Shown piece after piece: positions 1 through 49,900 of a stretch of DNA of 64,000 nucleotides; the first letter of the stretch is position 1, and every line of letters starts with the position of its first letter. The notes beneath the pieces were generated by a model. The model was not told the DNA's origin, ran no database searches, and saw nothing but the letters and a program-made list of their open reading frames with translations. The stretch is from positions 5,385-69,384 of the forward strand of contig JACOVG010000012.1 of NCBI GenBank assembly GCA_016177405.1. The letters run 5' to 3'. The position numbers and the translations under genes are program-made. The stretch is from Candidatus Omnitrophota bacterium (lineage in GTDB: Bacteria; Omnitrophota; Gorgyraeia; 1-14-0-20-64-10).

Positions 1-18
1 GAGCGGGTCGAGAGGGTC

Positions 19-17161: not shown

Positions 17162-17171
17162 GATTTCCTGA

Positions 17172-20682
<3,511 letters not shown>

Positions 20683-20704: not shown

Positions 20705-21328
20705 ATGAAGAATAAGTTTTGGGTGTTGGTTTTTCTTGTCCTTTTCGGCTGGGCGGCCTTGAGTTTCGCCCAGGAGACCGTCTGGCTGGACGACGCCGTG
20801 GCCCCCGGTGGTGCCACCGAAGGCAGCTGGCTCTGGGAGGATTCCGCCGAGGCCAGCGGCGGCAAGGCCCACGCGCATCCCTCGGCCAAGGGCCAGCAGT
20901 CTCACGGCATCGGCTTGGCGCCCGCCCTCCTGCCGGCCAACGGCATGATCAGCCAGACGGTCTGGCTGGACCCCCAGGACCCGCCCCGGGGGATCATGCT
21001 CAAGGTGAAAACCGAGACCGGCGAGGAAGCCGGCGTCTACTGGGAAGGGGAAGAGGAGGTCTTTGTCCCGGCCGACGAGGAGGAGGTTTTCTACTACGGC
21101 CTTCTGCCCGAGCTGGGCAAGTGGGTCACACTGGAGGTGCTGGCCGAGGATTTGGGGCTGGAGGACGAAAAGATCGCCCAGATCACCTTTGTGACCTTTG
21201 ACGGCCGGGTTTTGTGGGACAAAACGGTCCTCACCGAGGCGCCACCGGCCGAGGAGGTCGAGTTCTTCCCGGATCTTTCCCCGCCGGTTCCGCAGGAAGA
21301 GGCCCCGCTCCCGGGGAATATTGAATAG
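20705..21328 (+). CDS. Secreted hypothetical protein (signal peptide, acidic, Pro-rich C-terminus)
   Basis: Signal peptide MKNKFWVLVFLVLFGWAALSFA-QE, RBS GAGGTG upstream. No recognisable domain. Confidence 0.55.
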   Translation: MKNKFWVLVFLVLFGWAALSFAQETVWLDDAVAPGGATEGSWLWEDSAEASGGKAHAHPSAKGQQSHGIGLAPALLPANGMISQTVWLDPQDPPRGIMLKVKTETGEEAGVYWEGEEEVFVPADEEEVFYYGLLPELGKWVTLEVLAEDLGLEDEKIAQITFVTFDGRVLWDKTVLTEAPPAEEVEFFPDLSPPVPQEEAPLPGNIE

Positions 21329-21433
21329 TAGAGGGTTTCATATTTTGCAAATGTTAATGGTAATTGAGTTTTTGATAGGAGATATTGACAACCCCCGCGT
21401 CCATCAGATAAACTCCCTTACGTAGTCGATTCA

Positions 21434-21469
21434 ACACCCTGGGTCCGTCCCATAGCGGGCCCAGGGTGT
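21434..21469 (+). promoter_or_regulatory. Strong hairpin (14-bp stem with one G-U, 8-nt loop) in the AT-richer leader 50 nt upstream of the giant gene 1 start
   Basis: ACACCCTGGGTCCG-tcccatag-CGGGCCCAGGGTGT. No U-tract follows. Confidence 0.5.
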
Positions 21470-21517: not shown

Positions 21518-24500
21518 ATGAAGCCAAACCTGAATCAGGAAGAAAGTCGGTGTCAGACACCGAAACCGGTGTCTGACACCGTTGTTCCTCGCCTCTTCCT
21601 TAATAAGCGACCCCTCGCCCTCCTGCTCGTCCTCACCTCCCTCACCACCTGGGCTTGCCCCGCTTTTGCCCTGCGCCCGGCCGCCCCCAAGGAATCCGGC
21701 CTCGAGGAAGAGCTCTCCCGGACCCTCACTTCAGCCCCCGCTCGCCCTGAACTTGTCGCAGGGCCCGCCTCCGGCCTGGAGGAATGGAGTGACCGTTTTC
21801 ATTTCATAATCTTTCCAGAGGGAGATCGAGACGACCGGGCAATCGCTACTGGGTTTGGTCCTGCCGATCATACCCTCTGGATCCGAATCATCCAGAGTGA
21901 CGGTTTCACCTCTCGTCTTGGGTTCCAAGTAAAGGACCCTTCAGAAAGAGCCTTCCCCGGAGAAGTTCTGGTTTTACCTGGCAGGACCATAGGGAATTTG
22001 CTCCGGAAGACGGTGCCACAAAGAGATCTTTGGCGCGCTTGGGATATAGGAGTAGATAAGCTCACCCCTTACAAGCGCCGGAGTGAACTCGCGGCTTTCC
22101 TGGCGCGTTATCCGGAATTTTGGAAGGCGGTCCAAAAACAAAAGGCGTTAGCCATCGCGGGAGGCCGCGACGAGCAGGCCCTAAGTTTCCAAAGTGGCGA
22201 TTACGCCGTCCTTTTCTATACCCCCGGGGAGGATCCGGCCCAGTGGAAAATCTTTGCAGATCTTTCGGCCAATCCGCATCGCGATGATCAGCCAGTCACC
22301 TTAACATTCTCCGTTTCGCCTCGCCACGAGTTCAATCGAAAAAGTGTTTACCTGAAGCGGCGGGGTCTCCCGTCATCTTCTGCCCAACCTTTCTCGCAAC
22401 GGCAGACTCTTACCCATCAGCGCGCCCCTAACCCCCCCTCCGGCCTGGAGGAGCTGGGGGCGAGATTGGCCGAGATTCCATTGTCGGCCGGACTGACAAA
22501 ACTTTTTCAAGGCCTGGGCCAGACCCAGCCCGACATGGTGGATCGGTTTCTGACCATCCAGGAATCGGCAAAGAAGCAATGGCTGGCGATTCTTGAGAAG
22601 CATCCCGGCGAGCTGAAGATGGCCGTGGTTATTCCCGCCTACTCGAGGGGTGTGGACCGGATTCGATCGCAGGACTCGCTGACGCTGAAGCTTCTGCAGC
22701 TTAAGAAGCTGGCCGAAGCGGATACCCGGGGCCGTGTCCGATTCGTGATCTACGTGGTGGATGACAAGCCGGAGGCAGGACTTCAGGCGGAGGTGGATCG
22801 GGCCCGGCAAGCGGCAGGGGTGACTCCAGAAGGGCCTGTTCAGGTCCGATACCTCCGATTGCAGGACGCCGTGGACAAGCGGCGTCCGGATCTCAAGGAT
22901 CTATGGTTCGACCTCGTGCCGGGGGAGCAGGGCTCCAGAAGAAGCATCAAGTGGGGCGCGGTGAGATACGGCATGAGTGTCGCGGTGGAAGAAGGAGCCC
23001 GGGTGGTCGGCATGACCGACGCCGATTCCAACCAGCAAGCCTCCGAGCTTCCCAACCTCTTCGCGCCCATTCTCTTGGAGGATCGCGCGGCGGCCGTCGG
23101 ATCCCGCTTCTTAAATGGATCTGCTTCAAACAACGATCAGATCGGCCCCCACAACTTCATTGAATATTTCCTCTATAACCCCCTGGTCAAGCTCGCCATG
23201 CCGGAGATCGCTCCCATCGAAGATCTCCAGTCGGGACTCAAGGCCTTTTCGGCGAAGTTCCTGAAGGCCGCTCTGCCCAAGATGGCTACCCACAAGTTTG
23301 CCGGAGATTCGGAACTGCTGTTTTTGATGGCTCAAGCGGGCGGCCGCATCGCCGAGGTTCCCCGGTCCGAAATCGAGGAAAGCCCCGGCCAAAGCGCGGT
23401 AAATCCCGCCAGCTACATGAGCTTTGTTGAGCAACTAAAACTGCAACTGGTCCTGCACGCCGGCGGAAGAGGATTCCCGCCCGCCGCTTCAAGGTTTGGC
23501 CGGGCGATTCAAGGTCTCAACGTTGGTTTTTGGACGGCGCAGCGCCGCCGTTTCGAGCAGGCGCTGAATGAGGTGCAGGCGGGAAGGAAAACGCATGCCG
23601 AGGTAGAAGGGTTGTTACACGACCTCCTTTTCCCCGCCACGGGCCTGGAGGAGGGGGAGGAGTTCACCGGCGAGGCCCATCCGGGCGATATCATCTGGAA
23701 TCCGAACGACCCGCAGGGGATCCGGTACGTGGTGGATCGCCTGGAGGGCGGCAGGGTCGTCGCCCACCCGGAGAAGGAGCCGAAAGCCGTCGTCCGATTT
23801 CACCCGGATGCGCTGAAGCGCGATTTCAAACGCGCCTCTCCTCCCCTCAAGACGCTGAAAGAGCGGGCCGCTCAAGTCCCAGCCGAGGTTCAGGAGCTTT
23901 CCATCCGCGGGGGGCGCCGGCTGGAAAAACAACGGGCGGCCTTTTATCGAATTCAGGATCTGATTGGGCAGGACCCAGAGGTCTTGAGGCGGCTGAAGTC
24001 TGTTCGGGTGGGGGCCAAGGTGGTTTTATACGGCGCTACCTCCGAGGAGCTTTCTCACTTCCAGGGATTGGGCCTTGAGCCCGCCGATTACGATTTTGTT
24101 TTGCTGGAGCCGGTCTCGAACCCGGGAATGGCCGGCGATTTGGTGAAGAAGGCTTGGATGAAGGCCTCGGTGGTCTTCGCGGGGATTTCGGTGATGGACT
24201 TCATCACCCTGGTCCAGCCGCCGGGCGTTGCCGGCAGCAAGGAGAGACTTCCGTTTCCCGATTGGGCCGACCCGGCAAAACCGCTCACCGTGGTGGATCA
24301 ATTTCCTGAAGGAGCCGCCGCATACCTGGCCAAGGCGGAGCGGGTGATCTCCGGAGGGCCTTCTCACAGCGGGGCCAGAGTTGCCTGGCAGACGCTGGGA
24401 GGCGGGGTCCAGGGGCTGGGTAAGCGGGGAGATGTCCGGGTTTCTCATGTCTCCCGCGTGGGCGAAGGGACAGAAGGAGAGAAGCTCCTGGTTTCTCTGC

Positions 24501-27500
24501 GGGATTTAAGAGAGTCGGGGGAAGGGGTGGAGGTCTCCGGAATGAAGCCGGCCAAAGGAAGGGTGAATGCCTCCACGCTGGTTCTCTCCCAGCCCGAGGG
24601 AAAGCGCAATTTCATCCACCAGCTGGGGGCCAGCAACGAGCTTACCCCAGCCGATGTCCCGGACTCGGCTTTCCAGGGCGAGATCTTCTCCCTTCACGGG
24701 TCGGAGCTCGCCCAGAGGTTCATGAAGGGCGGGAAAGGGGTGATCGCGCTCCTGGAAAGAGCCAAGGCAGCCGGAGCCATCACGACCTGGGACACCGTCG
24801 TGGATCCCTTTCAACATTGGGGTTCGGGGAATCTCTCCGACAGAGATTTCGAAAAACTCCTTTCCCTCATCGACGTCTTCACCCCGTCGTTTGGGGAGGC
24901 GCTTGACATCATCCGCTTGCGGGAGGGGCTTTCCGATGCCCAGGTAAAGAAGTGGGCCCCCAGCCAGGCGGCGCGCTATTTTCTGGACCGCGGTTCCGAG
25001 GCCCTCTTCCTGAAGCTGGACGAGAAGGGGTCGCTCATCTGGACCACCCAGCGTTCCATCTTTGGCAGGCCGGCCCATTTCAGGATGCCGGTTCTCTGGG
25101 GCTTGAAGAAGAGGGACGGCACCGGAACCGGCGACGCCTACTCCGCCGCGGTCATCGTCGGCATCCTCATGGACTGGCCGGTGGAAAAGATTGCCCGGGT
25201 GGCCACCGCCGCCGGCGGGCTCGTTCTGGAAAATTACGGCGGGACCCTGGGGGATTACACCTTCCCCGACGTCCTCAAAGCGGCCGAGCGTCTTGAGGGC
25301 CAGATCGACGTGAAGATGGCTCTGGATTACCCGACTCTCTCCCTTTGGGAGGTGAGGCCTGGCGGGACCTCCGCGGGCTTTCCAGAGGGGCTCCTTCCGG
25401 AGGCCAAACCGGAATTGGATACCCTGCTTCTTCTGGCGGTGAGGCCTGATGAGGCGATCGCGGTGGCCGAAGGCCAGCCGGACGACCATCTTGCTAGAGG
25501 TCCTGTCGACAGGTTAAGGGTGCGCCTGAATGGGCGAACCGGCCCTCTTTCGCCGTCTGAAGAAGCGCTGGCCGAAGCCGTCCAGCGAGAGCCCCGCTTG
25601 GGTTCCACCCGCTCCACCCAGGAGCAGAGCGATCTTTTGACCTACATCGCAAGCGCTCTCCTCATTCCCCCCGCCATCGATGACCCCTCCGCTGCCGGCT
25701 TGGAGGAAAAGAATCGCAAGCCGGAGGCTGCCTCGGCGGTCTGGGACGGTTTGACCGTTGACCAGGCAGCGGAAATGCTTTTTGCTTACCGCCTGCGGAA
25801 GTCTTTGTACGCTGGTCGGAAGATCTTCCCCGTGGCCGGCAGTAAATCTTTTTTGGACACGATGTTCAACGGAGAGATCCGCAGCTGGCTGCAGACGGTA
25901 GCGAATGGTCATCCAAACGAATCGCTGAAACTTGTCGATGATGGCACGACCGTTTACGCCAGCTCTTCCGCCACGGGCCTGGAGGAGGGGGGCCAGGAGA
26001 AGGTTCAGAACGAGGTTCAGGAGGCCCTCTTGAGATTCCAGGGGCTCTTGTCCCACGCGACCAGCAAGGATTTGCACGTTTTGAGCCCCCAGACGCTCAA
26101 ACGGCTCCCGGATCTCCAAGGCTTAGGCGGCTTTGGTTTATTCCTGTTGCCTGACTCGAAGTTGCCGTTAGATCAGCTTCCGGGAGCAATAAAGAGGCGG
26201 TTGGGCAGAAGGCCCAAGGCCAATTTCTACGGCGCCGGAGCGGAAACCACTATCCTGGGGCTTGCCGCCCCGGGAGCGGGCGGTAGGTCTGGCTGGCTCA
26301 ATCTGGTTGTTGCAGGCAATGGGACGCTCGAGGAGTTCCTAGCAGGAACCCTGCTTCCCGGCTTGGGCATTCCCGACAAGCACTGGAAGGGCGAGGATGA
26401 TCTCGCGCAGATTGCGCTCGACCTGTGGACGCTGGCTCCTGCGCGAGCTGCCGGGCTGGAGGAAAAGCCCCAAACGGAGGACCAAGAGGACGAGTGGGGC
26501 GGGGTGGTTCGGCTGAATCTCTATGCCGAGCCGGATAGGGACGACCGGATTGTTATTTATAATCTCGGAGGCAGCCGCGCCGTCTGGGTCAAGTGGCTGA
26601 AAACAGAAAATCCCTCCAGGATCAGCGTAGGTTTCCTCGCGGCCGATGCCGGAGGAAGGCATTTGCCGGGCGATGTCGTCGTGCTAAGCGGGGAAACCGT
26701 CCAGCGCGCCCTGGATGAAGCCCAGAGCCCTCAATGGATCTGGCCGGCTTCCAATCGAATCCCGGATCTTCGCGACCCGGGAATCCGCGTCGCCATTCGG
26801 AAGGCAATGGAAAAGCGCCTGTCCGAAGCGAAGGCAAGTTTCCTCCAAGTCCCTCCTGCTCCTCAAGAGATGGAATTCAGGGATGGAGGCTACGCCGTTG
26901 TCTTTGACACCGCCGGAGATGACCCCTCAAGCTGGCGCCCCGTGGCCGACCTTTCCGTTCTTCCGAAAAACCAGAGGAAAATAGAGCTCGTTTTATCGGC
27001 TTTAGGTGAGGTGAACCTCGACAGAAAGAGCCAGAGCCAATTTCACCAGGAAAACGACCAACCCGCCGTTGATCCCTGGGGCTCGGTTTCCTCGCCTCTC
27101 GTGAGCGGCGACGCCTGGAGGAGGAAAGTCCAAAGCCAGCTCGATGATTACGTGACCGTGGTGCAAGCCCCGCCTCAAGGGCACGAGGAAAGGGATCCGG
27201 ATTTTCCCTCCAAAGAATTGCTCGAGGGCGTTCATTCTATAGAGGGAAGCTTGAAGGATGGAAAGGGGCCGGCGGTTGCCGAGGTCATCCGAAAAGTCCG
27301 CGGGAACTTAAGGGCGCTGGAAAGAGGAGGCCGGATTTCTCCTGTGGATTTCGAAGCCCTGGATGATCTTCTGGAGACAGCCGTGATCGAAGCCGAGCGT
27401 CCCCGCCGCCTTCCCGCCGGCCCTTCGGCTGTCCCCCCTCGGCCCCTCGATGAGAAAGAGGCCCCCCCAAGTGAATTCGCGGAGGGCATCCCCCTCGGCC

Positions 27501-30500
27501 CCGCGGCCGAGCCCCCCTCCGGCCTGGAGGAGACGGTCCAGGAGAAGTTCGGCAAGGCGCCGTTTGCCGTGGGAGTGCGTCTGCACGGTAGCACCATTGC
27601 CGCCGCTTTGGTCAATCGGAAGGGGGAGGTAGAGACCACCATCCTTGAGCCGACGCAGTGGAGAAAGCTGCCGGAGATCCTTGAGCTTTTGGGAAATCCG
27701 CCCCCCGACCGAGTGAATAAAGCGATCCTGGAACTGATTCCTCGCCCCGACCATATCCTCTCCTCGGAACAGCGTGACTTGGCCAGCCGGATTGGCGACC
27801 GGATTACCGAAGAAGTCATCCAGCACATCTTGGCCCTCGTCCGCAGTTCAGGACTGCCGAGGGAGAAGTTCAAATACACCTTCATCTCGTTCGCTGGACC
27901 TGTGGATCCCGTTTCAGGCCGGGCCGGAGTGCCTTTTGCCGCGCCCAACATACCCGGTTTTGAGAACTATCCCCTGGCCGAGAAGGTGGCCCATGGGATC
28001 GAGAAGGAGCTGGGGATGAAGGTTCGCGTGGATGTGAGAAATGACGCCCCCTCCGGCAGGATGGGGGAGACCAGCCCCAGCGGGACCATACCCGGCGCCA
28101 AGGGGGTGATCTCCATGATCTGGGGCACCGGGATCAACGCCGACTCGGATACCGTGCCCCTGTTTGAGGTGGGCCACGCCATCGTGGGTCGAATCGAAGA
28201 AGACGGCTTGGCCCACTACGAGTTTCGTGGAGCGGCAGAGAATCGGCCAGCCCTGGAACCGGATGAGTTTGAGGTGGAACAGCAATTAGGCGGCGAGGTT
28301 CTGGCGGCAGTCTTTAGGCAATACGGTTTCAAAGATGGCGGTGATCTCACACAGCAGGCTGCTCCGGACAATTCTGACCAAGCCAAGCGAGATTCGGCCA
28401 GGTCTATCATCGAGGACGTCGGCAAGGACATGGGCAGAGCCATCGCTTCCCTTCTGGCGCACTGCCGCAAGGAGCACCAGTTTGTTCCAACCCGTTTTGT
28501 TCTTACCGCCGGCGTGGCGGAGAAATTCGGCAAGGGGTTGGTGGATTCGAAGGGCAGAGACCTTCTGACCGGCGCCGTCCAGGATGGAGCTTCCCAAGAG
28601 CTTGTGGGTCGTTTCAATGTTTCTAAAGCGGATGCCGAAACGATGGTCAAGGCCGTTATCCGCTCCAGCATGGATGACCGCCGGGAGTTTGCCGCGGCAG
28701 CCAGCGCTCTTCCCTTCGCCGCGGCGGGATTTCCTGCCGATGGATTGTCGGTTCTCCCTGTATCGGAAACATCCCTGGAATTCTTGAAGAAGCTTAATCC
28801 TGATACCCCGGCCGAATTTGTTCAACACCAGCTTCTGATGGATGGCCCTCAAAGAGTGGCCGCGGTTCTGGAAAAAGGCAAGGAGACGCAGGCCGTGGGG
28901 ATGCTTGTGGCAGGCAGACTGTTCTGGGGGACCTGGGAAGATTTTAAGAAAGCGGGACTCACGGATGAGCAATCAGCCTCTGCCTTCCTTGACTATCTCC
29001 GGAATGGGATCCATGAGGCGCAGGTTACAGGTTTTAGGAATCTTTTCATCGAGAGGGTGATTCTTCGAAGAAGCCCCAAAAACGGCAGCGTCCATTTACA
29101 GCTTTCTGACGGACCGGTCCAGCCAGACGATGAAGTCACCTCGATGGTTCTCCTTCACGACAAAAAACATAATCTGGAAAACTTGGCCCACAGCCGTTCC
29201 AAGACCCCACTGCCGACCGGAAAAGCCGCCAAACCGCCCAAGTCCGGGCTGGAGGAGAAGCCGCCGGTGGAAAAGCGGGTCACCGGTAAAACAAAGTTGG
29301 CGGCGGGTGACCTGCTTGTTCGCAGGCAGCTAGGTGAGCCCATCCGCGGCTATCAGATCACGAAGATCGGCTGGCCGCAGTGGTGGCGTGGAATAACGGT
29401 GAAGCAAACAAGCATAGAAGCAACGCCGCCTCCTCTGCCTCGCGTGACGCGAAGAATCCTGAAGAGCGATCCAACGTGGACCCATCTTCCGCTGGCTGGC
29501 CTTCGGGAGGAGGATCTTGTTCGGCTTGGCTTGGAGACCTTCTTGAGCAAAATCACCCCAGGGGAGAAAGCGGCTTGGAAGAAAGAAGGCCGCGAAGCGG
29601 CGGCCAAGCAGAAGCAACATAAAGAAGAAATCCGCGCCGCGCTGGGCCCGTACGCCGCGCCGCTTCCCACGCGAACCAAGCCGAAGCCACCCTTCCAGGT
29701 GACGCAAGGGGCGCGGGAGTTCGAGATTCTCAAGACGCAGGTTGAGAAGGAAGGGCATCTTGTAGCGGTGGAGCCAACCTCCTACTATCCCGCTGCCGAC
29801 GGGGGGATTTCCAGTGAGAATGTCGGGAGCATGGTGACCAGCCTTCTTCGCAAGGCGCGCATGGGGGAGAGCGAACTTAAACACATCGCCTTCTTTCTCC
29901 CGGGCACTCCGAAGGAAGAGCGGACTCCAAGGAATGTTTTTGTGGTTTCGCTGGATCAGCCCATCTTTCAAGGGAAAGACGCGCCGCAGACCCTGAAAAC
30001 GGCGCTTGATGCTGTCCTGAAATATCTGCTTTCCCAGGATTCCAAGGAAACACCTACGGAAAGAGTCCAGGTCCCCTTGGCGAGATGGAAGCCGCCGGGC
30101 GCCTCTGCCCAAGACCCCCATGAGCTGGTTCCGGTGATCCTGCCCGTTCCTCCGCGCCCCGATCCCACCGCAGGCCCGCCACAGAACCGGCGGGCAGGCC
30201 TGGAGGAGGCGGCGGGGGCGTTCCTGGCGGGGGTTGTGGAGCAGACGCGGGCCGAGCAGGACCCTTACGCCCCGCTTCTGGGCACCGATGAGGCCCGGGA
30301 GGCCGCGGCGCGGTATCTCACCAGTCAGTGGACCGCTCCGGAGAGGCGGATCGACCCTTCCCAGCTCTTTATAACTCCTGGCGGCGCCGGCGCCCTGGAG
30401 CTTTTAATCCGAATGGCGGCCGATGTGACCGACGCCCCCCTCAAGGCGCTTCGAGATCCGAATGGGCGCCAATGGATTTGGCTGTCGAAAGCGCTTGAAG

Positions 30501-32872: not shown

Positions 32873-32907
32873 TCAAAAGAAAAAACAATACAGGGAGAAA
32901 CCTAAAG

Positions 32908-35900
32908 ATGCGTTCGAAACTGCTGAAAATTCTCGTGGCGCGGGTTGCGCTCTTCACGTCCGTTATCACCTGGGCGGCGCCCGGGTATGCCCTGCGCCAG
33001 ACCGGGCTGGAGGAGTCTCCCAAGGAGCGGAAGCGGCTTGAAGTCGCCCTCCTGGGCACCGGCAACCCCGGCCAGGACCTCAAGAACCTCGGCGCCGCCG
33101 CCAACCGCCTCGCCACGGACCTTGGGTTTCTCCCTGCAGCCGGATTAGAGGAAGGTTCTTTAGGTCTCGATGATCTGATAAAGCAAGCCGGCGCTGGCTC
33201 CGAGGATGAGCGGAGCAGGGCCATCCAGGCCCTGGGAAGATTCTTTTCAGGGATTACGGTGGATCGGAAAAGATTGGCCTCGTTTGATGGCGGTCGCAGG
33301 GTCCTCCCGGATCTCACCCCGGTGACAAGCATTGGAGCGCTGGGAGTGGTGTTGAGCAACATGGTGGGTTCCGGTGACAAGATTGGATGCGACAGCGCTT
33401 CCTCCTCCAGGATGAATCCGGCGGTGCAGGTGGTATTCCGTGTGGCGGGGCACAACTGGTGGAACAGGGCAGGTGAAGGGAAGAGGGAAGGTGTTCCCGA
33501 CGAGGCGCAGATTCCGCCGATGGAGAAGCCGCTCGTCTTCTCCGCCGGCTGGGTCACTCTCTATACCGCCAACGACCCTGTGGATGGAACCACCCGGACC
33601 TCCAAGGGTCAGGATGGGGGGGTGACCCTTTTTATGGTGACCCCGGATTTTGGCAGGAGGATCCCGGACGAGCTGCGGCTTGAGAACGTCATCTACGCGG
33701 GTCAAAAAGCCGACTTCAGCCTGAAGCGCCAAAAGTTTGACGAGATCGTGAGGCGGATCGCGGCGTCGAATAGAAAATCACCTTCCGATTACGAGGTCTG
33801 GGTGCTCAACCGTCCCCATGGCCAGGAGATCATTGATCTGGCAAGGAAAGCGGGAGCCAAGGTGCGCCTGTATCAGGATGGGACGGTTCAGCCCTCCCTC
33901 TACCTGGCCGCTTTTCCGGAGAGAAACATCATCGTGGCGGGCCGCGTCGGAGCAACCGAAGGCAAGATGGTCGCGGCCCCCCTGCGCAACGTCCATTACC
34001 CCGGCGGCGGAAGGGTTTGGATGAAGGCCCGGATCATCTCGGAAAACTCCGCGTATGAGGTGGCGGAGAAGCGCCAAGGCGGCATCGTTTATTACGAGCC
34101 GAGGCTTGACCCGGACGGCAAGAAGGTCGCCGCGAAGAGTCTGACCAACGGAAACAAGTTGAGTCTCAAGGACAAAGAAGCTCTCAAAGAGGCCGGCTAC
34201 GCGGAGGAAGAGGTTGCCCGGATTGAGGATGGAAATTGGGAGCTGGAACTGGAGGATTTGGCTCCGGCGGCGGGAGACCTGTCCCTTTCCTACATCACCG
34301 AGCCGATGACCGGCTTGGATGGCCAGCCCCTCTTTGATTGGGAAGCGGAAATACACGGTGTTCAGAAGGCCGAAGGGGTGGTCAGTCATACGTTGGATTT
34401 CGCCGCGGATGGCATCTGGCTGGTCACGCATCGCTATCCGGACGCGGGGCTGGGGAGGATTGCCGCTCAACTTCATGAGCAGGAGCGGGTGGTTAACCTC
34501 CTGCGGAAGATCGTATTCGAAGATCCAAGCCATAATCTCCGGCAGGCCGCCCAAGCGGCCTTGAGAGAGTATCTGCCGCACGCGCTTGGTCTGGACTTCC
34601 AGCGGCGGGCGGGGCTGGCGATCGCGGGTGTGGCGGCGGGGCTGGAGGAGGCCAAGCCGGTCATCGGCTACCAGCCGAAACTGACACTGGAGCAAAACCT
34701 CAAGGCCCAGGCCCTTTTTGGGATGGGAACCGGTTCAGGCGTTACCAAGGTAGATGTGAAATACCAGATTAGAAACACGGCAGGAGATCCGGCCGCCTTC
34801 AGCCGGCTCTTTGGCGAACTCCTGGCCTTAAGCCAGGGCGACATGAATAAGCTTGCAAGGATTTTTGAAGAGGCGGTTCAGGCCGACTACGTGAGCGAGG
34901 AGCAGCTCGCCGCCGCCCTGCAGCGCCTGGCCGCCGATCCCGGGGTCCCCTACAACCAGCCGCCGGTTTCTTACTACAACCCGGCCCGCTACGTCTACGC
35001 CCGCCTGCGGAACATGCGGGGCGGCCGGATGACCGGATGGGTCGACGCGGTCCTGGAACCGGTGGCGGTTCGTGTTCGCAGACACGCCTCCGGCAAGGAT
35101 CTCTCCGATGTCCGGCAGAAGGCCCAGGTGGTTCAGGCCCTGCAAAAAAGCTGGGGGAGCGGTCGTCAAGAAGCGGGGTCGAACCTGCCCACAGGGCCTT
35201 TCCGGTACGAGATCTTTTGGGATTCCTTGGTGGAAAAGGACGGGGAATATTACCTCACGCTGGAACTGCTTCTGGACGGAGGGAAGGATTACGCCCAAGG
35301 GGTCGTTCTGGAGCTTCAGGTGGTAATTCCGGCAGAAGGGGAACTCCAGCAGTACCAGAACCCCTACACCTTGGAAATTCCCCCGGACAGAAGGGCCCCC
35401 TTCTCCTACGGACTCTTGGATTCCCTCCACTTTGTCAACACCCGCTTTCCGGAGTGGAGGCCCACGGCCCAACGGGACATCTACGATGCCCGGATGAAGG
35501 CGATGCAGGAAACAGGCGTGAAGCGCCAGATCCTGCGGCCGTCGGTTCGCCAGGGGAACAACCCCAGGTTCTTCGAGCCCTTCTTCCGGGCCTATTTGGC
35601 CGGGCGGGTTCCCTTGATCTACCACATCGTGCACACCCGCTCGGAGCGGGAGTACGGCAACCAGGGCGGGGTTCCCTCCATCGGGAATCTGGCCTCCGCC
35701 ATTGTCCGGCGAGGCGGTTTGGGAGTCACCGCTTCCTGGCTTATCGAAAATCCTAAAGAGGCCGAGCCGCTGGTCGGGCAAGAGCTGGTTTTTAGCTACG
35801 AGCTGGACCACCACCGGATTGACAATGTGAAGGATGCGGCTGGATTCGCGGCAGATTTTGAGTATCTGGTGAAGGCCTACCAGGAGGCGCTCGTCACAGG

Positions 35901-38900
35901 GTGGGTTTCCGCCAACCTGCAGGATGAGACCAAGCTGGAGAACGTTGAGAACCGCCAGAGCTGGCTTAGGTCCGGCGTCAACGCGGCCCAGACGAACGGC
36001 ATGGTTGACGCAACCATTTTTCAGCGGCTGGAGGAAGTCTACAGCGACGCTCCGGTGGCACCCGGCCTGCCCAGCTCCCTTGGCTTTCATTGGGTGCGCA
36101 ACCGGATCCTCCGCCACCTGGTCGAGACGGTTGGGGTCCCGGCAGGCGGGGTTCCGTATGACCGCTGGTACATCGAGCCGGACTATGCCCTGGACGGCAA
36201 GCCGCACACGGTGGAGGAGATGGCCTATCTTTCCTTCATGTCCTGGATGAGCGCCCAGGCGCACGGCTTTCCCTTGGGGCCGGTTGTCCCCAGCTACGGG
36301 AATGTCCACGGCGCCTCGGCGGGCAATCCGTCTCTTGCCCTGGCCGGTGTCCACCAGTACGCGGCCCAGGCGGCGACCCTTTACGGGCAGCCCTTGCCGC
36401 CAGAGCTTCTGGCGATATCCCGGAAGACCCCCCGCGGCTATTCCGACCTGGTCACTTCGGTTGTCGTGAATTTCAAGGATCAAGCGTTGGCGCAGGAGAT
36501 CGTGAAACTCTTTCCTGCCGACGGCCAGCGGACGGCCGCGGAAGAAGAGAGGATGAGGAATTTCGCGCTGGAGCAGTTAAGAAACATTCCAGCCGGCGTG
36601 CTCGGCACGCTGAAACAGGCGGAGCTGGCCATCCTCGAAGAGGTAGGGTTGGCCAAGAAAGAAGCGCGAGATCCCAGGCCGCTTGAGGAGTCGAGCCCAG
36701 AGGTGGCCAGGCGCCTGAAGGAGATTACCACCCAGATGGACGGGAAGATCCAGGCGATGGATCTTAGGCGGCGGGCGGCCATCACCACCCACGCGGCCAG
36801 CGGCCTAAGCGCCGCGCAGTTGAAGGCGGCGCGCGAGGCCGGCATCTGGATTGCCAACAAATCCACCGAGCCTCAAAACATCGTCCTGCGAGTTTTGTCC
36901 CTCTTTGACAAGATCTCCAGCGATGAAGTCGCCGGTTTGGACGCGCTGGCTAAACTCCCTGGAGCTGTCGAGATTTGGAAGGCCCATACCCACGGGATGC
37001 CGGCCCACCAGCGCGAGGAGCTGGCGGGCCGTATGGCCGCGCTGTACCAACAGATGTACGACGGGGTGGTGGAGCGGGCGGTCAAAGCGGCCAAAACTCC
37101 CGAAGAAGCACGGAAAATCCAGCTGGTGACCAAAAGCTACGGCCGGGTCTTTCCCTGGTTCTGGGATCCGCAGGCCGGCTGGTCCATGAATGAGCCGGGC
37201 TTAAGTGACTGGACCAGCGAGTTCGATTGGCTGACCAGCACCCACGGGCGGTACATGTTCGCCCTTCGGAATCCGGATGGGACGCTTCGCTTCCCGAACG
37301 CCCTCACCTGGGGGCTCGATCCGCTGGTGGTGGAGATCTCCCAGCACCTGATTGAGCAGACGATACCCTTCTACCATCGGCCCGATGTCATGAACGCCGA
37401 GGGGGCCGCCCAGGAGTACCGCGATTTCATGGCCGCCAAAACCACCGCCGGTGCGCCGGCCGAAGCCGACCATTGGACCGACAAGCCCCAAGGGCCGAAA
37501 TTGGACGACGCCGGGCTGGAGGAGAGCAACATCGCGAAGGCGAAGGGGCTGGGGAGTATCTTCTGCTTCGACTTTCTTGAGAACATCTCCGATGGCTTGA
37601 TCGAGGCCGCGATCCAGGGGGGCGCCACGGAGTTCACCATGAACCCCTATTCGACAGGGAATTACATCCAGCACCTCCTGACCCTTGCCACCGACGCGGG
37701 CCGCCAAAAGGCCGAGGCCCTCCAGGGGATACAGACTACGGAGCAATGGACAGGGTTCAAGAAGGAGGTGACCGATCTGGTCAAGGCAAAGGATAAGATA
37801 GGGCTGGCGCTGAAGGCGGCGATAGAGCCCTCACCGGATGTGAAGCCGGAGACCGAGCTGGCTCTAGCCAAGGCAGTTGCCCAGGCGATGCTGGCCGAGG
37901 CCGGTGTCGTGAAAGGGATGATGGAGCAATTGTCCCGGGAAGGGAAAAGCGGCGAAGAGGCGTACTGGGTCATCACCAAGTATTTTGCCGGAAAGATTGC
38001 CAGGCGGCTCAAGCCGATCTTTGATGGCTCCCAAGAGAAAACCGGCTACGTCTCCATCGAGGTGGATCCGCGGATCGAGCGGGAGGATTTTGCCGAAAGC
38101 CGCATGGAACCGGGAGCGGCGCGAGATAGAACCACTCGGCATCTTTGGATGGCGGACCGGATGCAGACAGAAACCAGGGATCTGGCCGGGATTGCCTCCA
38201 ACATCCTGGTCAAGGTTCCTGACACCGAGGCAGGGATCGCCACTGTTGGCGTGGTGGATGCCAACTACAATGTGACCCTGGCTTTTGTCGACGATGACGG
38301 TCGGGATGCCATTGCCGCTTTCGAGAAGAGGGGCGATTTGGCCCACCGCCTGCGCGTATCGCCCTTCGCCAGCCGGAACGCCGTCTACTTTGAGGAGTTC
38401 TGGGGCGATCTGATGAAGGAAGCCGACGGCTCCCAGGTGATTGACGGCCACGCCTGCACCATCGCCAATCTTTTCGATGTCTTTGAGGCACTCGGCAGCT
38501 ACGCGGACGGCGCCATCTGGTCCAGTCTCGGCATGAAGGTGAAGGGGGACCCGGGCGAGCTGTACGCCAGGTACGTGGTCGGTGTCGGGATCTTGAACGC
38601 CCCGCCGGAGACGGCCCGCGATTTCAACCGGGCCTCCTTTGAAATCCGGCGCTGGCTGGGTGAGAAAAGTTTGGTGGAGATCCTGACCGATTATTTCCAA
38701 GCGGTGAAAGAGGGCAAGGTCCCCTCGGCGACAGCGAAGTTCCCGGCCTTGATGGACGGTTCGATCTCTCCAGAGGATCTGGCGCGGCAGGCCGTTGGCA
38801 AATGGCACGCCTTGAGGAGTCGGCCGGTGTACCAGGGCCGCTTGACTCAAGTTCTTGAGAGGGTTAAGCAGTTGGAGCTGGCGGCCCAAAAGCCGCGTCC

Positions 38901-39597
38901 CTTCACCCGAGAGGCGCTCGCGATTGTTCAGGCCAGATTGGCGAGCGGCGAGATGATCACCGAGAAAGAGCTGATGCGGGTTGTCTTGAAGAAGGAAGGG
39001 GAGGAGAAGTTCATCGCCCCCTTTGCCGGCGCGATCAAGGCGCTGGATGCCGCCATGCAGCAGATGAAATCCGGCCTGGAGGAGACGGCGGTGCGGGAGG
39101 CCCTGCGGGAGTTCAATGCCTTGAGCGAAATCTTGAGGGTTAGGCAGGGTCATGTCACCGGAAGGGGGCGGCCGATCCTGGTGAATCTTTCCGGTCCCGA
39201 CGGGCCAAGACTTATCGCTGTGGCCCAAGCCCTCGCGCTCATCAGGGCGAAGAATGATAGCTTGAACGAGATTGACTTCCGAGTGGTTGCTCCGGAGTCT
39301 CTCGTGGAGAATCTGCTTGACGGCTTGAAGGGAATCAATCCAGAAGCTGTTTCCTATTGGCTGTTTCCACGCGTCATCTCCTACGACGACTCTGCTCCCG
39401 CGAAACAAAAAGCCGCCTATCAAGATGCCAGGAAAGAGGCCCTGCGGCAATTGGGCGTTCGTGCCGCTTTCAAAGAGATTCGCGAGTTCACCAAGGACTT
39501 GGCGCTTGAGCTTAGGGGCTATTTCCAGGGTGGCGGCCTGCGGTTTGCCACGGAAGAGGCCTTCAGGCGGTTCGAGGCGCTTCTTAAGGCGGCGTAG
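32908..39597 (+). CDS. Giant multidomain protein 2 (2229 aa). Signal peptide, GlpX-type (class II) fructose/sedoheptulose-bisphosphatase-like domain, transaldolase-like domain, and large unknown regions. Carries 5 [SAT]GLEE motifs.
   Basis: Signal MRSKLLKILVARVALFTSVITWAAPGYA-LRQ. GlpX-like: DPVDGTT, VWVLNRPHGQEIIDLARKAGAKVRLYQDGTV, GRVGATEGKMVAAPLR. Transaldolase-like: GATEFTMNPYS, YVSIEVDPR, ILVKVPDTEAGIATVGVVDANYNVTLAFV...RVSPFASR. RBS GGGAGAAA 35 nt after the giant 1 stop. Confidence 0.7.
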   Translation: MRSKLLKILVARVALFTSVITWAAPGYALRQTGLEESPKERKRLEVALLGTGNPGQDLKNLGAAANRLATDLGFLPAAGLEEGSLGLDDLIKQAGAGSEDERSRAIQALGRFFSGITVDRKRLASFDGGRRVLPDLTPVTSIGALGVVLSNMVGSGDKIGCDSASSSRMNPAVQVVFRVAGHNWWNRAGEGKREGVPDEAQIPPMEKPLVFSAGWVTLYTANDPVDGTTRTSKGQDGGVTLFMVTPDFGRRIPDELRLENVIYAGQKADFSLKRQKFDEIVRRIAASNRKSPSDYEVWVLNRPHGQEIIDLARKAGAKVRLYQDGTVQPSLYLAAFPERNIIVAGRVGATEGKMVAAPLRNVHYPGGGRVWMKARIISENSAYEVAEKRQGGIVYYEPRLDPDGKKVAAKSLTNGNKLSLKDKEALKEAGYAEEEVARIEDGNWELELEDLAPAAGDLSLSYITEPMTGLDGQPLFDWEAEIHGVQKAEGVVSHTLDFAADGIWLVTHRYPDAGLGRIAAQLHEQERVVNLLRKIVFEDPSHNLRQAAQAALREYLPHALGLDFQRRAGLAIAGVAAGLEEAKPVIGYQPKLTLEQNLKAQALFGMGTGSGVTKVDVKYQIRNTAGDPAAFSRLFGELLALSQGDMNKLARIFEEAVQADYVSEEQLAAALQRLAADPGVPYNQPPVSYYNPARYVYARLRNMRGGRMTGWVDAVLEPVAVRVRRHASGKDLSDVRQKAQVVQALQKSWGSGRQEAGSNLPTGPFRYEIFWDSLVEKDGEYYLTLELLLDGGKDYAQGVVLELQVVIPAEGELQQYQNPYTLEIPPDRRAPFSYGLLDSLHFVNTRFPEWRPTAQRDIYDARMKAMQETGVKRQILRPSVRQGNNPRFFEPFFRAYLAGRVPLIYHIVHTRSEREYGNQGGVPSIGNLASAIVRRGGLGVTASWLIENPKEAEPLVGQELVFSYELDHHRIDNVKDAAGFAADFEYLVKAYQEALVTGWVSANLQDETKLENVENRQSWLRSGVNAAQTNGMVDATIFQRLEEVYSDAPVAPGLPSSLGFHWVRNRILRHLVETVGVPAGGVPYDRWYIEPDYALDGKPHTVEEMAYLSFMSWMSAQAHGFPLGPVVPSYGNVHGASAGNPSLALAGVHQYAAQAATLYGQPLPPELLAISRKTPRGYSDLVTSVVVNFKDQALAQEIVKLFPADGQRTAAEEERMRNFALEQLRNIPAGVLGTLKQAELAILEEVGLAKKEARDPRPLEESSPEVARRLKEITTQMDGKIQAMDLRRRAAITTHAASGLSAAQLKAAREAGIWIANKSTEPQNIVLRVLSLFDKISSDEVAGLDALAKLPGAVEIWKAHTHGMPAHQREELAGRMAALYQQMYDGVVERAVKAAKTPEEARKIQLVTKSYGRVFPWFWDPQAGWSMNEPGLSDWTSEFDWLTSTHGRYMFALRNPDGTLRFPNALTWGLDPLVVEISQHLIEQTIPFYHRPDVMNAEGAAQEYRDFMAAKTTAGAPAEADHWTDKPQGPKLDDAGLEESNIAKAKGLGSIFCFDFLENISDGLIEAAIQGGATEFTMNPYSTGNYIQHLLTLATDAGRQKAEALQGIQTTEQWTGFKKEVTDLVKAKDKIGLALKAAIEPSPDVKPETELALAKAVAQAMLAEAGVVKGMMEQLSREGKSGEEAYWVITKYFAGKIARRLKPIFDGSQEKTGYVSIEVDPRIEREDFAESRMEPGAARDRTTRHLWMADRMQTETRDLAGIASNILVKVPDTEAGIATVGVVDANYNVTLAFVDDDGRDAIAAFEKRGDLAHRLRVSPFASRNAVYFEEFWGDLMKEADGSQVIDGHACTIANLFDVFEALGSYADGAIWSSLGMKVKGDPGELYARYVVGVGILNAPPETARDFNRASFEIRRWLGEKSLVEILTDYFQAVKEGKVPSATAKFPALMDGSISPEDLARQAVGKWHALRSRPVYQGRLTQVLERVKQLELAAQKPRPFTREALAIVQARLASGEMITEKELMRVVLKKEGEEKFIAPFAGAIKALDAAMQQMKSGLEETAVREALREFNALSEILRVRQGHVTGRGRPILVNLSGPDGPRLIAVAQALALIRAKNDSLNEIDFRVVAPESLVENLLDGLKGINPEAVSYWLFPRVISYDDSAPAKQKAAYQDARKEALRQLGVRAAFKEIREFTKDLALELRGYFQGGGLRFATEEAFRRFEALLKAA

Positions 39598-39608
39598 GCG
39601 TCTGACGC

Positions 39609-39637
39609 TTGACCGGCATCGGTGCCGGTGCTAGAAT
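39609..39637 (+). promoter_or_regulatory. Near-consensus sigma70-type promoter TTGACC-17 bp-TAGAAT
   Basis: TTGACC at 39609-39614, 17-nt spacer containing the small palindrome CCGGCAtcggTGCCGG, TAGAAT at 39632-39637. Lies 120 nt upstream of the 39759 gene. Confidence 0.55.
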
Positions 39638-39661
39638 CGGGCTGTTTGGAGGTGAAACTTG

Positions 39662-39725
39662 TCATCCTCGCGTAAGCGAGGATCTTCCGTCCTCGTCGGG
39701 ATTCCCGCTTTCGCGGGAATGACGA
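39662..39725 (+). repeat. REP-like repeat copy 2 (perfect stem ATCCTCGC-gtaa-GCGAGGAT) plus an adjacent second hairpin (ATTCCCGC-tttc-GCGGGAAT), between the predicted promoter and the next gene
   Basis: TGTCATCCTCGCGTAAGCGAGGATCT is related to the copies at 14436 and 40972. Two tandem GC-rich stem-loops. Confidence 0.55.
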
Positions 39726-39758
39726 ATTCCAACTTAACAAGAAGGGGGTTTATCTCTC

Positions 39759-46949: not shown

Positions 46950-49900
46950 ATGAGAACTAACACGTTAGCCGGCCTTGTCCGCCGATTTTTCGCTCTTTGG
47001 CTAATTCTGGCCCTCGCCTGCCCAGCCCCTGCCTACAGCCTCCGCGAATCCCAGGAAGACACCACCCTCGACGAGCTCCCCCGCGCCCTCACCGGCTTGG
47101 AGGAGACTCCATTACCCCTGCCTGCGGCATCCGGCAATGGCGATGAGATTCTCCGAGAGATTGCCGAGGCCAGGCGGTTGGCCGAGGGAAACACCCTTGA
47201 TCAGAATGTAACCACGATAGCCAGCGTGGCAGTTGACGGTTCTGAAAAGAGCATCCGAATGAGCTGGCAGGATGGGACGTGGGAAGATCTTTTCGACTCC
47301 TTCTCGGTAGCCGTCAAGACCTATCCCTTGCTAAGGCCCCTTGTTCCGGGCCCGGAGACAGTAACCGAGCAAGTCAGGCAAAAGATAGAAGAGGCGAAGG
47401 GCCTGGAGATCCCCGTTTTTAAAGGAGACGTCGGAGAGTTTTTCCTTTCTGTCGGGTCCGCGGCGCGGCTAAAAGAAGAACTACTGGTTTTAGGCCGTAA
47501 GCCCCCAAGCCGGCAGGAACTTGATGAGCTTGCGAGCTCTTTGCGGGAGGTGCTTGAAGAACCGCGTTCAGGCCGGACGGCCCGCCAGCGTTTGGACGCC
47601 CTGCGCGCTCAAGCGGGCGAGAAAGAGCGGCGTTCCCTCGAAAAAGCCATCCAAGCGATGGATGAGATGGTCAGGGAGTTTCTTGCCGACAACGAGACCA
47701 TCTGGAAGGCCATCGCCGTCTTAGAAAAGGCGGTCGGCGGCGATTTAAGAAGAGTTCCTGGCGGAGTGGCTGGCGACCTTCTTCGCCCGCTCACCCAAAG
47801 GGCCGGCGATTGGTTTTTATCCGGCCTTCTGCTTCGGGCCCTGCTTCAGGACTCTCCGGGCGAGAAGACGCTGGAGATAGAAAAGATCAAAAAGCGCCTG
47901 GCTCTCATGGAAGAGGAAAAGCGGTCGGTCTTGCGCTACCGGCTTTCCCGCCGCGCCGACGCCCGGGCGCTCCGGGCGGTCTTTTACGATGCCTATCGGC
48001 TGGCATTGTCGGCTGCCCTCGAGGCCTTGACGGAAGAGCTTTCCCAGGCCGACCCTGCCGACGAAGGTAGAGCCGTCGATCTTGAGATAAGAATCTGGCT
48101 GATGGGGTTTGAGGCGCTTCATCTGGTGAAGGAAGAAGCCGCCACCCAGGCGGTTTGGAGCTCCGCCAGAGAGGCCAGGCCAAGCGCCGGCCCCGTTAAC
48201 AACATCCGAAGGATGACTCCCTCGGTCGGCGTTTTGTTCCTCCGCCCCGATGGCACCTTGAGACGGTTTGTCCCAGGCGGCGGCAGCTTCCACGCCCCGC
48301 ACATGGTCGGTTATTTCACGCCCACCCGGTTTGCCCAGTGGTATGAGCCGGGCGACCGGATCTACCTTCTGGCCAACACCTTGACCGGCGCGCTTGCCCT
48401 GGATCAGTTCCGTTCTTATCTGGAATCGGTGAACCATCTCCAGGCGGTCTTCCCCGATCTGCCGACACCCGGTTTGGGGATAGCCACGGAAGGAGGGATC
48501 ACCCTCTACCATCCCAGGGCCTCGGCAGGTGATCCGTCGGGCTGGGAGAGGATCTGCGAGCCCGTCGCTTCCGCCCTCTCCTGCTACATTGAATTCTTCG
48601 ACCAGATGCACAAGGCGATTCTTAACGACGACGATAAATGGCGAAGGAAACTTGCCAGGGGTCAGTTCGGGAATCGATGGCAGAGCGTGGTGCGCGACGC
48701 CTATCCCGAAAAGAAATATCCCGGCCTCCTGGCCCAGGTTGCGAAGGATGTGACCATCCAGTTTGGAAAGAGGATTAGCAACCTGCGCGACGTAAAAAGC
48801 GGCGAGCTGGTTTACGAGATTGGCTTTCTGGAGGGGCAGGTCAATCGGATTGTGGGAGAGCGGATCACGCAGGGCCTTCTGGGAGGTTTTTTCACCGAAG
48901 AGAAGGTGTCCGGCCTGACCGATCGGCCATTCCCCGCGCCGACACCCCCCGGCGCTCCTGCCTCTCCGGCTGTCCCCCCGGCGGAAACTGTTCAGGAATC
49001 TCCCTTTGCCGCCTCCGCGGACGAAAGAGAAGTTTTTCCTGCCGGTCTCCTTCAGGAAGCCCCGCCCCTTACGGATCCCGACCCCGTCCGCCGCTTACTG
49101 GATGAGATGACCGGCCTTGCCTTCGCCGGGGGATATCTCCCGGACATGGTGAGCACGGAGTACGAGGACTTGGAGAGAAGGCAAATCCGCCTTGTCATGG
49201 ATGCCGGAGCATCTCGGGCGTTGCCCTTCCTCTTGGTCAGTCTGGAGTTCCCGGAGACCAAACTCTCCCCCCTTGCGCCGGAGCCCCGCGTAGGCGGTCG
49301 GCCGGTTGAGCGCCTTATCGTGAAGCGGATACGCAAGGAAGAGGCCTCGAGGATCGTGGAGGGCATGCCTGGCGCGGCCGTCTTCAAGGAGGTTATTCCC
49401 AAGGTGCAGCGCCTTTTGGATGCCGATGCCCCTCCCAAGGAGATGGAGGGGCCTGTCAAAGAGCTTCTCCCGGCCCTCGTCAAGTTTCTTGAGCAAGGGG
49501 GTGGCGGCAGAGGGCCTATGGAGCAGGCGGCCCAACGGCTTGAAACCGACCCAGCTTTCCGGGAAGTGATGGAGTTTCTGAAAAGGCGTTTGGACGTCAT
49601 GATGGAGGGGGATCTGCTGAACGAAGAGCTTTGGAGGAAGCGTGGAAAACTGGAGGCCGGTTGGGCGCGAGAGAGGATCGCCGCGTTTCGGAGCCGGCTC
49701 TCCGATCCGCGCATTCAGGCATGCCTGGACTGCGATCTTGAGAAGCTCCCTCTCCAGGGAAAGGTTTCCTACGACTTGGTTGCCGCGCCGGTTGCCGACG
49801 CGGAGGGCGCCGCCAGGCAAGGAGAGCTGCTGGCCCTCATGGAGCGGACAGATCTCAAGGCCCTGCGCCAGAGCTATGTGGAGGCCCTGCGCCTGGCCTG

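Follow-up and report, generated by a model that had tools for sequence, protein, structure and literature searches.

The MARTX toxins of Vibrio and its relatives are secreted proteins of 3.5 to 5 thousand amino acids (kaa) in which exchangeable effector modules, the variable cargo, are held within a conserved frame. They leave the cell by type I secretion and carry glycine-rich repeats and an internal cysteine protease domain (Peptidase_C80), and their modules, once freed by cleavage at short Leu-containing linker sites, act in the cytoplasm of another cell. The polyproteins of picorna-, poty- and nidoviruses have protease-specific cleavage-site codes, and polymorphic toxins combine conserved trafficking parts with recombining modules, only the C-terminal tip varying and immunity genes following. 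Chlamydia secretes glycogen enzymes into the inclusion, the Chlamydiae belonging to the same Planctomycetes-Verrucomicrobia-Chlamydiae (PVC) superphylum as the Omnitrophota. The DNA analyzed here, termed the window throughout, is a 64,000-nucleotide (nt) stretch of a Candidatus Omnitrophota bacterium (assembly GCA_016177405.1, contig JACOVG010000012.1, positions 5,385 to 69,384), and our subject is a pair of adjacent giant genes within it, G1 and G2. An epibiotic or predatory way of life has been proposed for the Omnitrophota themselves. Long Omnitrophota proteins of a "multi-enzyme metabolic cluster" (starch synthase, GT1, PGM, ROK and others) are described in a preprint of June 2026 (10.64898/2026.06.07.730766); signal peptides or transmembrane (TM) helices are present in 94%, and its authors point out that this topology is at odds with a metabolic role inside the cell. 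West-Roberts et al. (2023; 10.1101/2023.11.21.568195) proposed that the giants of this phylum are cleaved after translation, at points that they stated to be unknown. A secreted hexokinase is known from microsporidia (PMC6152459); such a sugar kinase carries an export signal and works outside its producer. A recognized puzzle for the Omnitrophota giants is whether they act whole or cut, and why enzymes of cytoplasmic type stand behind export signals.

The pair consists of the following open reading frames (ORFs).

21518..32872, + strand: G1, 3784 aa, ATG start; putative modular precursor with 11 [AST]-GLEE junctions
32908..39597, + strand: G2, 2229 aa, ATG start; putative modular precursor with 5 junctions

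They are co-oriented and 35 nt apart, exactly as in the preliminary description of this DNA, which had been made from its letters and ORF translations; a ribosome-binding-site-like GGGAGA stands 12 nt before the G2 ATG. That description also entertained a new kind of exported metabolic megaprotein, which overstated the case: G2 is already in NCBI (identical to MBI1953079.1, whose sole annotation reads [quoted passage not shown]), and multi-enzyme long proteins of Omnitrophota are reported in 10.64898/2026.06.07.730766. G1 and G2 are small members of this recently recognized phenomenon. Like those proteins, from the same phylum, they tile many distinct sugar-metabolism Pfam domains, none dominating, behind signal peptides, and present the same topology paradox. 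With 3784 and 2229 aa they are smaller relatives of the catalogued giants (at least 10 kaa for most analyses), from which they also differ in having no internal TM helices and no C39/S8 peptidase or dockerin domains. Beyond the preliminary description, our analysis adds an [AST]-GLEE junction motif, module permutation, genome-specific motif variants, a tail shared by G1 and G2, and two more family members in the window. Neither 10.64898/2026.06.07.730766 nor 10.1101/2023.11.21.568195 contains the terms GLEE, linker, polyprotein or processing (0 occurrences), and module permutation, genome-specific variants and Cys depletion go unmentioned in both; an incomplete literature search found no description of the motif or of polyprotein processing in Omnitrophota. 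The junction code, the cassette behavior, the genome-specific variants and the exclusion of Cys appear to be new.

MARTX toxins and viral polyproteins are the closest functional analogues of G1 and G2, which nevertheless belong to neither group on the features tested. The giants share with MARTX a modular build and a conserved frame with swapped cargo, but RTX repeats, Peptidase_C80 and a type I secretion signal were not detected (Pfam E <=0.01 for whole proteins, E <=1 for modules), the cargo consists of central-metabolism enzymes rather than toxins, and the export signal is Sec-type. As in viral polyproteins, their units are parted by a short motif that is uniform per genome and differs by lineage, the pattern to be expected if it co-evolves with a cognate protease; unlike viral polyproteins, they come from a cellular organism, are predicted to be exported and have no recognized cis-acting protease, their cleavage being a proposal of this study. 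The microsporidian hexokinase and the Chlamydia glycogen enzymes resemble them as sugar enzymes exported to host-derived, ATP-containing compartments, a destination that we propose for the giants, but these are single-domain proteins (with a signal peptide or type III export) whereas the giants are multi-module and carry a junction motif. Metabolic cargo and the repeated junction motif also set the giants apart from polymorphic toxin systems (PMC4436062). Our preferred reading, to which we assign a probability of roughly 45%, is that G1 and G2 are exported modular precursors cut at their junctions by a co-evolving factor.

The evidence begins with the motif itself. G1 has 11 copies of GLEE and G2 has 5, where amino-acid composition would predict 0.20 and 0.11; the string is found in none of 18 housekeeping proteins checked in the window and none of 10 in a related locus, L003 (related loci and proteins are designated by L and P numbers). 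The in-frame sites of the window, in G1, G2, a third giant (G3) and a partial ORF at positions 1-3006, number 21; all 21 are spelled GLEE and all 21 have Ala, Ser or Thr at position -1. Among these sites the Gly codons vary and the flanks are unrelated, on which grounds we rejected a DNA repeat as the source of the motif. Across 109 sites of the family, A/S/T holds position -1 in 94%, Ala being the commonest residue (63/109), with Pro (1.85-fold) and Ala (1.68-fold) over-represented among the nine preceding residues. In most relatives no other 4-mer of the complete protein is as over-represented as the junction motif. The motif also recurs 4 to 18 residues from the end of the signal peptide and 8 to 40 residues from the C terminus (partial ORF 1-3006, G3, P0016 and P0003). 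In AlphaFold 2 models the motif and the linkers are disordered, with a predicted local distance difference test score (pLDDT) of <50 at residues 1-6, 1-5 and 938-958.

Cutting G1 and G2 at the motif yields blocks with one recognizable domain each. The junctions of G1 are at aa 61, 86, 309, 709, 1394, 1487, 1646, 2002, 2577, 2894 and 3594, and those of G2 at aa 33, 79, 578, 1536 and 2056, delimiting the following parts (a slash marks the predicted signal peptide cleavage site).

21518..21670, + strand: G1 signal peptide, aa 1-51 (...LTTWACPAFA/LRP; rule-based)
21773..22441, + strand: G1 head module A, aa 86-308, fold unassigned; also heads the counterpart in locus L006
22442..23641, + strand: G1 GT2-like module, aa 309-708, weak call
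23642..25696, + strand: G1 PfkB sugar-kinase module, aa 709-1393; PfkB domain at aa 971-1243
25697..26452, + strand: two short G1 modules, aa 1394-1486 and 1487-1645; no Pfam or NCBIfam match
26453..27520, + strand: G1 head module A', aa 1646-2001, paralogue of module A (E 3e-19)
27521..29245, + strand: G1 ROK-like kinase module, aa 2002-2576; conserved part 2002-2391
29246..30196, + strand: G1 module, aa 2577-2893; no Pfam or NCBIfam match
30197..32296, + strand: G1 aminotransferase module, aa 2894-3593; class I/II domain at aa 3219-3581
32297..32872, + strand: G1 C-terminal tail module, aa 3594-3784, ends LLEAA; Rossmann-like alpha/beta fold, no specific family
32908..32991, + strand: G2 signal peptide, aa 1-28 (...VITWAAPGYA/LRQ; rule-based)
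33142..34638, + strand: G2 class II fructose-bisphosphatase (FBPase; GlpX) module, aa 79-577
34639..37512, + strand: G2 958-aa module, class II aldolase superfamily, aldolase or ketose 4-epimerase type
37513..39072, + strand: G2 transaldolase module, aa 1536-2055
39073..39597, + strand: G2 C-terminal tail module, aa 2056-2229, ends LLKAA

The domain assignments of the preliminary description stood for PfkB, aminotransferase, GlpX and transaldolase, all above their Pfam cutoffs and in agreement with PDB sequence searches, whereas GT2 proved marginal and ROK weak in G1. In G1, PfkB (PF00294) scores E 2e-18 and 67.4 bits against a cutoff of 25.8; by eye, the module has DGTGTGDA, a catalytic motif of the GAGD type, and a noncanonical SFGE at the NXXE position. 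Aminotran_1_2 (PF00155) reaches E 4e-32 and 112 bits against 19.7 and spans profile positions 4-361 of 361, with NPTG, D..Y and SK....G.R.G (TQSK...GGRLG, including the pyridoxal phosphate [PLP] lysine) recognized by eye. A tandem pseudo-dimer was considered for this module and rejected, its halves not being alike (E 8.2); a scan of genome contigs returned only an unrelated archaeal aminotransferase with 23% identity. GT2 (PF00535) falls below its cutoff (E 0.09, 13.1 bits versus 23.3), with NCBIfam values of 0.003 for PpgS and 0.02 for AglJ and with VVDD and TDAD motifs visible by eye. The ROK-like module has no Pfam match to PF00480, an NCBIfam ROK_glcA value of E 0.0017 that is far below cutoff, and a negative PDB profile search; orthologous modules are 47 to 52% identical to it, and one of two reaches Pfam ROK at 5e-5. 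Its single Cys makes the Cys-rich Zn motif of many ROK members impossible.

In G2, FBPase_glpX (PF03320) matches aa 134-373 (Pfam E 3e-18, 66.3 bits versus 27), and the module, aligned to Mycobacterium tuberculosis GlpX (6ayy), keeps GSGDK, GEGK and DPVDGTT. TAL_FSA (PF00923) matches aa 1667-1902 (E 9e-10, 38.8 bits versus 27), the Schiff-base Lys motif ILVKVPDTEAG being retained and aligning with MIKVPATDAG of 7bbw. At least half of each protein had been said to match nothing recognizable, which holds at the sequence level, where a PDB profile search with the 958-aa module was also negative; this block, however, was resolved by structure, its TIM barrel matching the FBA-II/YdjI/GatZ/UxaE/tagatose 4-epimerase superfamily well above generic barrels. 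It has three invariant His, in DHHR, NVHG and THAASG, and three metal-binding His are expected of the superfamily. Because the GlpX and transaldolase active-site motifs are conserved and the aldolase-type module has its three His, the enzymes look catalytically intact. The tails of G1 and G2 are homologous (36% identity, E 2e-19) and this module is common to G1, G2, P0001, P0007 and P0011; a small Rossmann-like tail of this kind closes most members of the family. The presence of A and A' in G1 looks as if the protein had arisen by the joining of two units, each opening with the same head module.

Relatives of G1 and G2 carry such modules in other orders. An exhaustive HMMER search of 1.84 billion representatives, with the aldolase-type module and both its junctions as the query, retrieved only 27 proteins, G2 among them; about 20 of these are 1.2 to 3.9 kaa long with the module at varying positions. 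The others came from further NCBI metagenome-assembled genomes (MAGs) and Logan assemblies, P0001 and P0004 being named Candidatus Omnitrophica, and metagenome contig scans with profiles of the C-terminal and GlpX modules found none. Word-indexed searches with the C-terminal module, as a single query and as a 3-sequence profile, likewise returned nothing and missed even P0001, which has the module, a result that reflects the candidate filter and does not speak for absence. Judged from these sequences, the family is rare and restricted to Omnitrophota. P0001 (927 aa, from a Candidatus Omnitrophica MAG) is 52% identical to the first 577 aa of G2 in a word-indexed search and reads signal peptide, TGLEE, AGLEE, GlpX, AGLEE, small module, AGLEE and a tail ending LLEAA, with conserved synteny downstream. 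Locus L006 (GCA_947085785.1) has the same layout as the window: H+-PPase, small secreted protein, giant, giant, peptidoglycan-binding protein and OmpA, followed in both by uppS, cdsA, dxr, rseP, ispG and proS. Within this common setting, G1 and its syntenic L006 counterpart have only the head and tail modules in common. In P0023, ROK is directly followed by GlpX, modules which in the window lie in G1 and G2, respectively; P0011 opens with the aldolase-type module and has ROK close to its end. Other combinations include transaldolase, transketolase, cupin-type phosphoglucose isomerase (PGI), PHP-like and phosphoglucomutase modules. The cargo is wider than sugar-phosphate enzymes, because the same kind of protein carries a formate-tetrahydrofolate ligase in L003 (5708-9967, 1419 aa) and a dihydrodipicolinate synthase together with a response regulator and a mannitol-dehydrogenase-like part in locus L005 (3593-8485, 1630 aa).

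The ends of the BLAST blocks shared among family members fall a median of 13 aa from the nearest junction, compared to 123 aa for random positions, and 54% of them lie within 15 aa of a junction versus 8.7% at random. The modules act as exchangeable cassettes bounded by the motif and joined by Pro/Ala-rich disordered linkers ending in [A/S/T]-G-[L/M/V]-E-[E/Q].

The spelling of the motif is a property of the genome. In L005 (GCA_964373055.1), four adjacent multi-module proteins with signal peptides use A-G-[V/M/A/T]-E-Q, 15 of the 20 sites ending in Q and none (0/20) having Leu. Both L006 giants have GMEE at their internal junctions (8 and 6 sites). One spelling per genome, differing among genomes, is what would be expected of a site read by a co-evolving trans-acting protein. 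In the same two L006 giants (2109-19858) the first site after the signal peptide still reads LRQTGLEE, and recognition of the first junction may differ from that of the internal junctions, or this site may belong to the export signal. The distant members P0020 and P0013 have no G[LMV]E[EQ]; a recurrent ASSLG (5 to 6 copies) in P0020 and ELRNEL/RTELR in P0013 may be alternative junction codes of distant lineages.

Sequence features point to a workplace outside the cytoplasm. The preliminary description had given each giant a signal-peptide-like start, and G1 and G2 indeed have one N-terminal hydrophobic segment each and no other convincing TM segment, with a Sec-type grammar that extends to the family: all 26 full-length members open with a signal-peptide-like segment, 17 of them with a strict P-x-x-[AGS]/L-[RK], small residues at -3/-1, a positive n-region and a total length of 23 to 30 aa. 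The h-region is short (about 12 to 16 aa) and a Pro stands at -4 to -6. These N termini, called by rules, are best read as cleaved Sec-type signal peptides rather than reverse anchors. Tat export was rejected for want of a consistent twin-arginine motif by eye. Cys makes up 0.17% of the four window giants, whereas in 18 cytoplasmic housekeeping proteins from the window it reaches 0.89% (Fisher p 7e-12). Its share is 0.07% in 46,778 residues of relatives, and 0.03% in the L003 giants versus 0.92% in the L003 comparison proteins; overall the depletion is 5- to 30-fold, and the enzyme cores have 0 or 1 Cys each. Cys exclusion is a known trait of exported proteins in several bacterial groups. Together, the signal-peptide grammar and the exclusion of Cys favor an extracytoplasmic working place. 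They also favor the second of two options raised in the preliminary description, an exported megaprotein, the membrane-anchored cytoplasmic assembly faring less well.

According to our preferred reading, G1, G2 and their relatives would be strings of modules that fold on their own, most of them enzymes of sugar-phosphate metabolism, and these precursors would be exported through Sec and the signal peptide removed. A trans-acting factor that co-evolves with the junction motif would recognize it; this factor would most likely be an endopeptidase, releasing the individual enzymes from the precursor much as viral polyproteins and MARTX toxins are processed. Those enzymes that need ATP or PLP would then work at an extracytoplasmic site where their cofactors are supplied, most plausibly the cytoplasm of a host or prey cell, because an epibiotic lifestyle has been proposed for Omnitrophota and parasites secrete sugar enzymes. 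An extension of this scheme is a true bacterial polyprotein system, in which a dedicated protease and a drifting junction code (GLEE, GMEE, GVEQ, possibly ASSLG) would free a gluconeogenic and pentose-phosphate set outside the cell, plausibly in the host or prey, and redirect its metabolism; we hold this to be possible but rather doubtful.

Several observations weigh against cleavage after export. Neither Pfam nor NCBIfam finds a peptidase domain in G1, G2 or G3, and no candidate protease was identified, though a genome-wide search was not possible; the nearby RseP belongs to a widely conserved gene cluster. S/T-x-x-E doubles as a helix N-capping box, so the motif could be partly structural, and its synonymous codons lean to TGGAGG, an RNA-level constraint beside the peptide-level one. 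Delivery into another cell is purely conjectural, and the window shows no secretion apparatus linked to the locus. If the FBPase, aldolase and transaldolase of the giants were the sole copies in the genome, an extracellular role would be hard to square with the organism's own metabolism. Finally, the signal peptides were judged by rules and not by a trained predictor.

The same facts can be accommodated if the proteins are exported and never cut, functioning whole, as multi-enzyme beads on a string located in the periplasm or at the surface, with the motif as a linker (N-cap or hinge) or as a docking site for a scaffold or chaperone. This is the most serious competitor, although we think it unlikely. 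It is in keeping with the lack of a protease in the Pfam and NCBIfam searches of the giants, with the fit of S/T-G-L-E to a capping box, and with the 2026 preprint (10.64898/2026.06.07.730766), which treats such proteins as single membrane-associated polypeptides; a genome-specific motif would suit a co-evolving binding partner as well, and substrate channeling could favor a fusion of FBPase, aldolase and transaldolase. Free permutation of modules, however, speaks against a fixed channeling order. Ala, the commonest residue at -1, is a poor N-cap, the motif is predicted to be disordered and not the start of a helix, and where it lies close to the end of the signal peptide or to the C terminus a hinge has no obvious use. 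Alternatively, as the first option of the preliminary description had it, the N terminus could be an uncleaved anchor and the enzyme string a cytoplasmic, membrane-tethered metabolon. ATP- and PLP-dependent enzymes are normally cytoplasmic, those of G1 and G2 look intact, their modules cover central sugar-phosphate steps that the cell needs, and many genomes have no recognizable hexokinase or PGI genes (10.64898/2026.06.07.730766), which could hide in such proteins. We nevertheless regard a metabolon as improbable: the positive n-region, short h-region, Pro at -4 to -6 and small -3/-1 residues predict a cleaved N-in/C-out segment, and a 5- to 30-fold depletion of Cys is hard to explain for cytoplasmic enzymes.

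A further reading places the signal at the level of RNA. NTG-GAG-GAR spells a Shine-Dalgarno (SD)-like GGAGG, which might pause ribosomes or drive internal initiation so that modules are made without the signal peptide. In the window, L002 and L003, the Leu codon is NTG in 31/33 sites against a background of 0.56 (p=2e-6) and the first Glu codon GAG in 32/36 against 0.66 (p=0.0015), and the codons CTG, ATG and GTG of the L/M/V variants all retain TG. GGAGG is nevertheless common along the giants, at 1.6 to 7 per kb (48 in G1 versus 11 junctions), and because it is so frequent it cannot mark the junctions; moreover, GAA stands at 4 of 10 L003 sites, where the core is lost and the peptide kept, the GVEQ, GAEQ and GTEQ variants weaken the SD-like string, and an SD element leaves the conserved [AST]-G unexplained. 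In-frame starts 2 to 5 codons downstream are not enriched (9/36), for which reason internal translation initiation was rejected. The codon bias is real but secondary, the peptide motif alone not accounting for it, and an RNA element as the main explanation is quite remote. Least credible of all is that errors in assembly or sequencing joined separate genes into artefactual giant ORFs. The source is a MAG, and the GC content at third codon positions (GC3) of the giants (0.70 to 0.76) is below that of the housekeeping neighbors (0.84 to 0.91). Yet GC by codon position (about 0.66/0.45/0.72) is even across every 900-nt tile of the 18 kb of G1 and G2, the junction motifs are in frame throughout, and orthologous giants occupy the same syntenic position in several independent assemblies. 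Intact homologues of 2 to 3.9 kaa occur in independent NCBI MAGs and Logan assemblies, and one family gene was recovered from two independent assemblies, an NCBI MAG and one from Logan. The even codon signal and these homologues make a frameshift or assembly fusion very unlikely.

The junction motif makes both puzzles of the Omnitrophota giants directly testable, since it predicts exact cleavage or recognition sites for proteomics, and it allows giants to be cut into modules for structure prediction. Comparing the motif variant with gene content gives a handle for finding the reader protein by phylogenetic profiling. Divergent central-metabolism enzymes hidden in giants, such as the 958-aa module, could explain apparent pathway gaps in Omnitrophota. 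Delivery of the enzymes to other cells, if it occurs, would make for a new type of bacterial metabolic parasitism, and a junction code, if true, would supply the missing cleavage map for the much larger giants of the phylum.

Two further family members lie in the window.

46950..56774, + strand: G3, third giant, 3274 aa; signal peptide ...CPAPAYS/LR
1..3006, + strand: fourth family member, 3' part, running off the window start; ends LLQAA

G3 sits between ispG and proS, where the relatives L003 and L006 have no gene. Its signal peptide is followed by TGLEE (aa 49), and two AGLEE sites further on set off a 2996-aa block from a GNAT-like module (Pfam E 0.0013) and this module from a 42-aa tail. 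The 2996-aa block has no database match and, by eye, holds three similar units marked RF[VI]PGGG. In the partial ORF a starch-synthase-like (Glyco_transf_5) domain is recognizable; SGLEE lies at nt 445 and AGLEE, with just 14 residues after it, at nt 2950, and the 1001 residues include 0 Cys.

Around G1 and G2 the following features were noted.

20705..21328, + strand: 207-aa secreted protein, function unassigned, immediately upstream of G1; no Pfam match
21385..21414, + strand: TTGACA-18-TAAACT, sigma-70-like promoter upstream of G1 (10/12 match, consensus match only)

The 207-aa protein is 54% identical (E 9e-65) to the protein in the same position in L006, thus more conserved in this comparison than the cargo of the giants, and may be a functional partner of the giant locus. 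One sigma-70-like promoter was found 5' of G1 versus 0.2 expected. Because promoter-like sites lie 5' of G1 and directly after G2 (39609-39637) with no terminator-like site between the two genes, the arrangement is consistent with their co-transcription. A scan of the window against Rfam and for tRNAs found nothing, hairpins included. A perfect 15-bp hairpin, CGGTGTCAGACACCG-AAAC-CGGTGTCTGACACCG (21548-21581), lies within G1 codons 11-22, 5' of the hydrophobic core, and a second, GC-rich one, CACCCTGGG...CCCAGGGTG (21434-21468), in the G1 leader; both may be translational or transcriptional control elements. The 161-nt spacer 3' of G2 (39598-39758) has short GC-rich palindromes, CCGGCATCGGTGCCGG, CATCCTCGCGTAAGCGAGGATC and GGGATTCCCGCTTTCGCGGGAATG. 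The GC content of the giants is 0.60 to 0.61 compared to 0.64 to 0.66 in the housekeeping neighbors. All genes identified in the window are on the + strand, and the cumulative GC skew climbs throughout.

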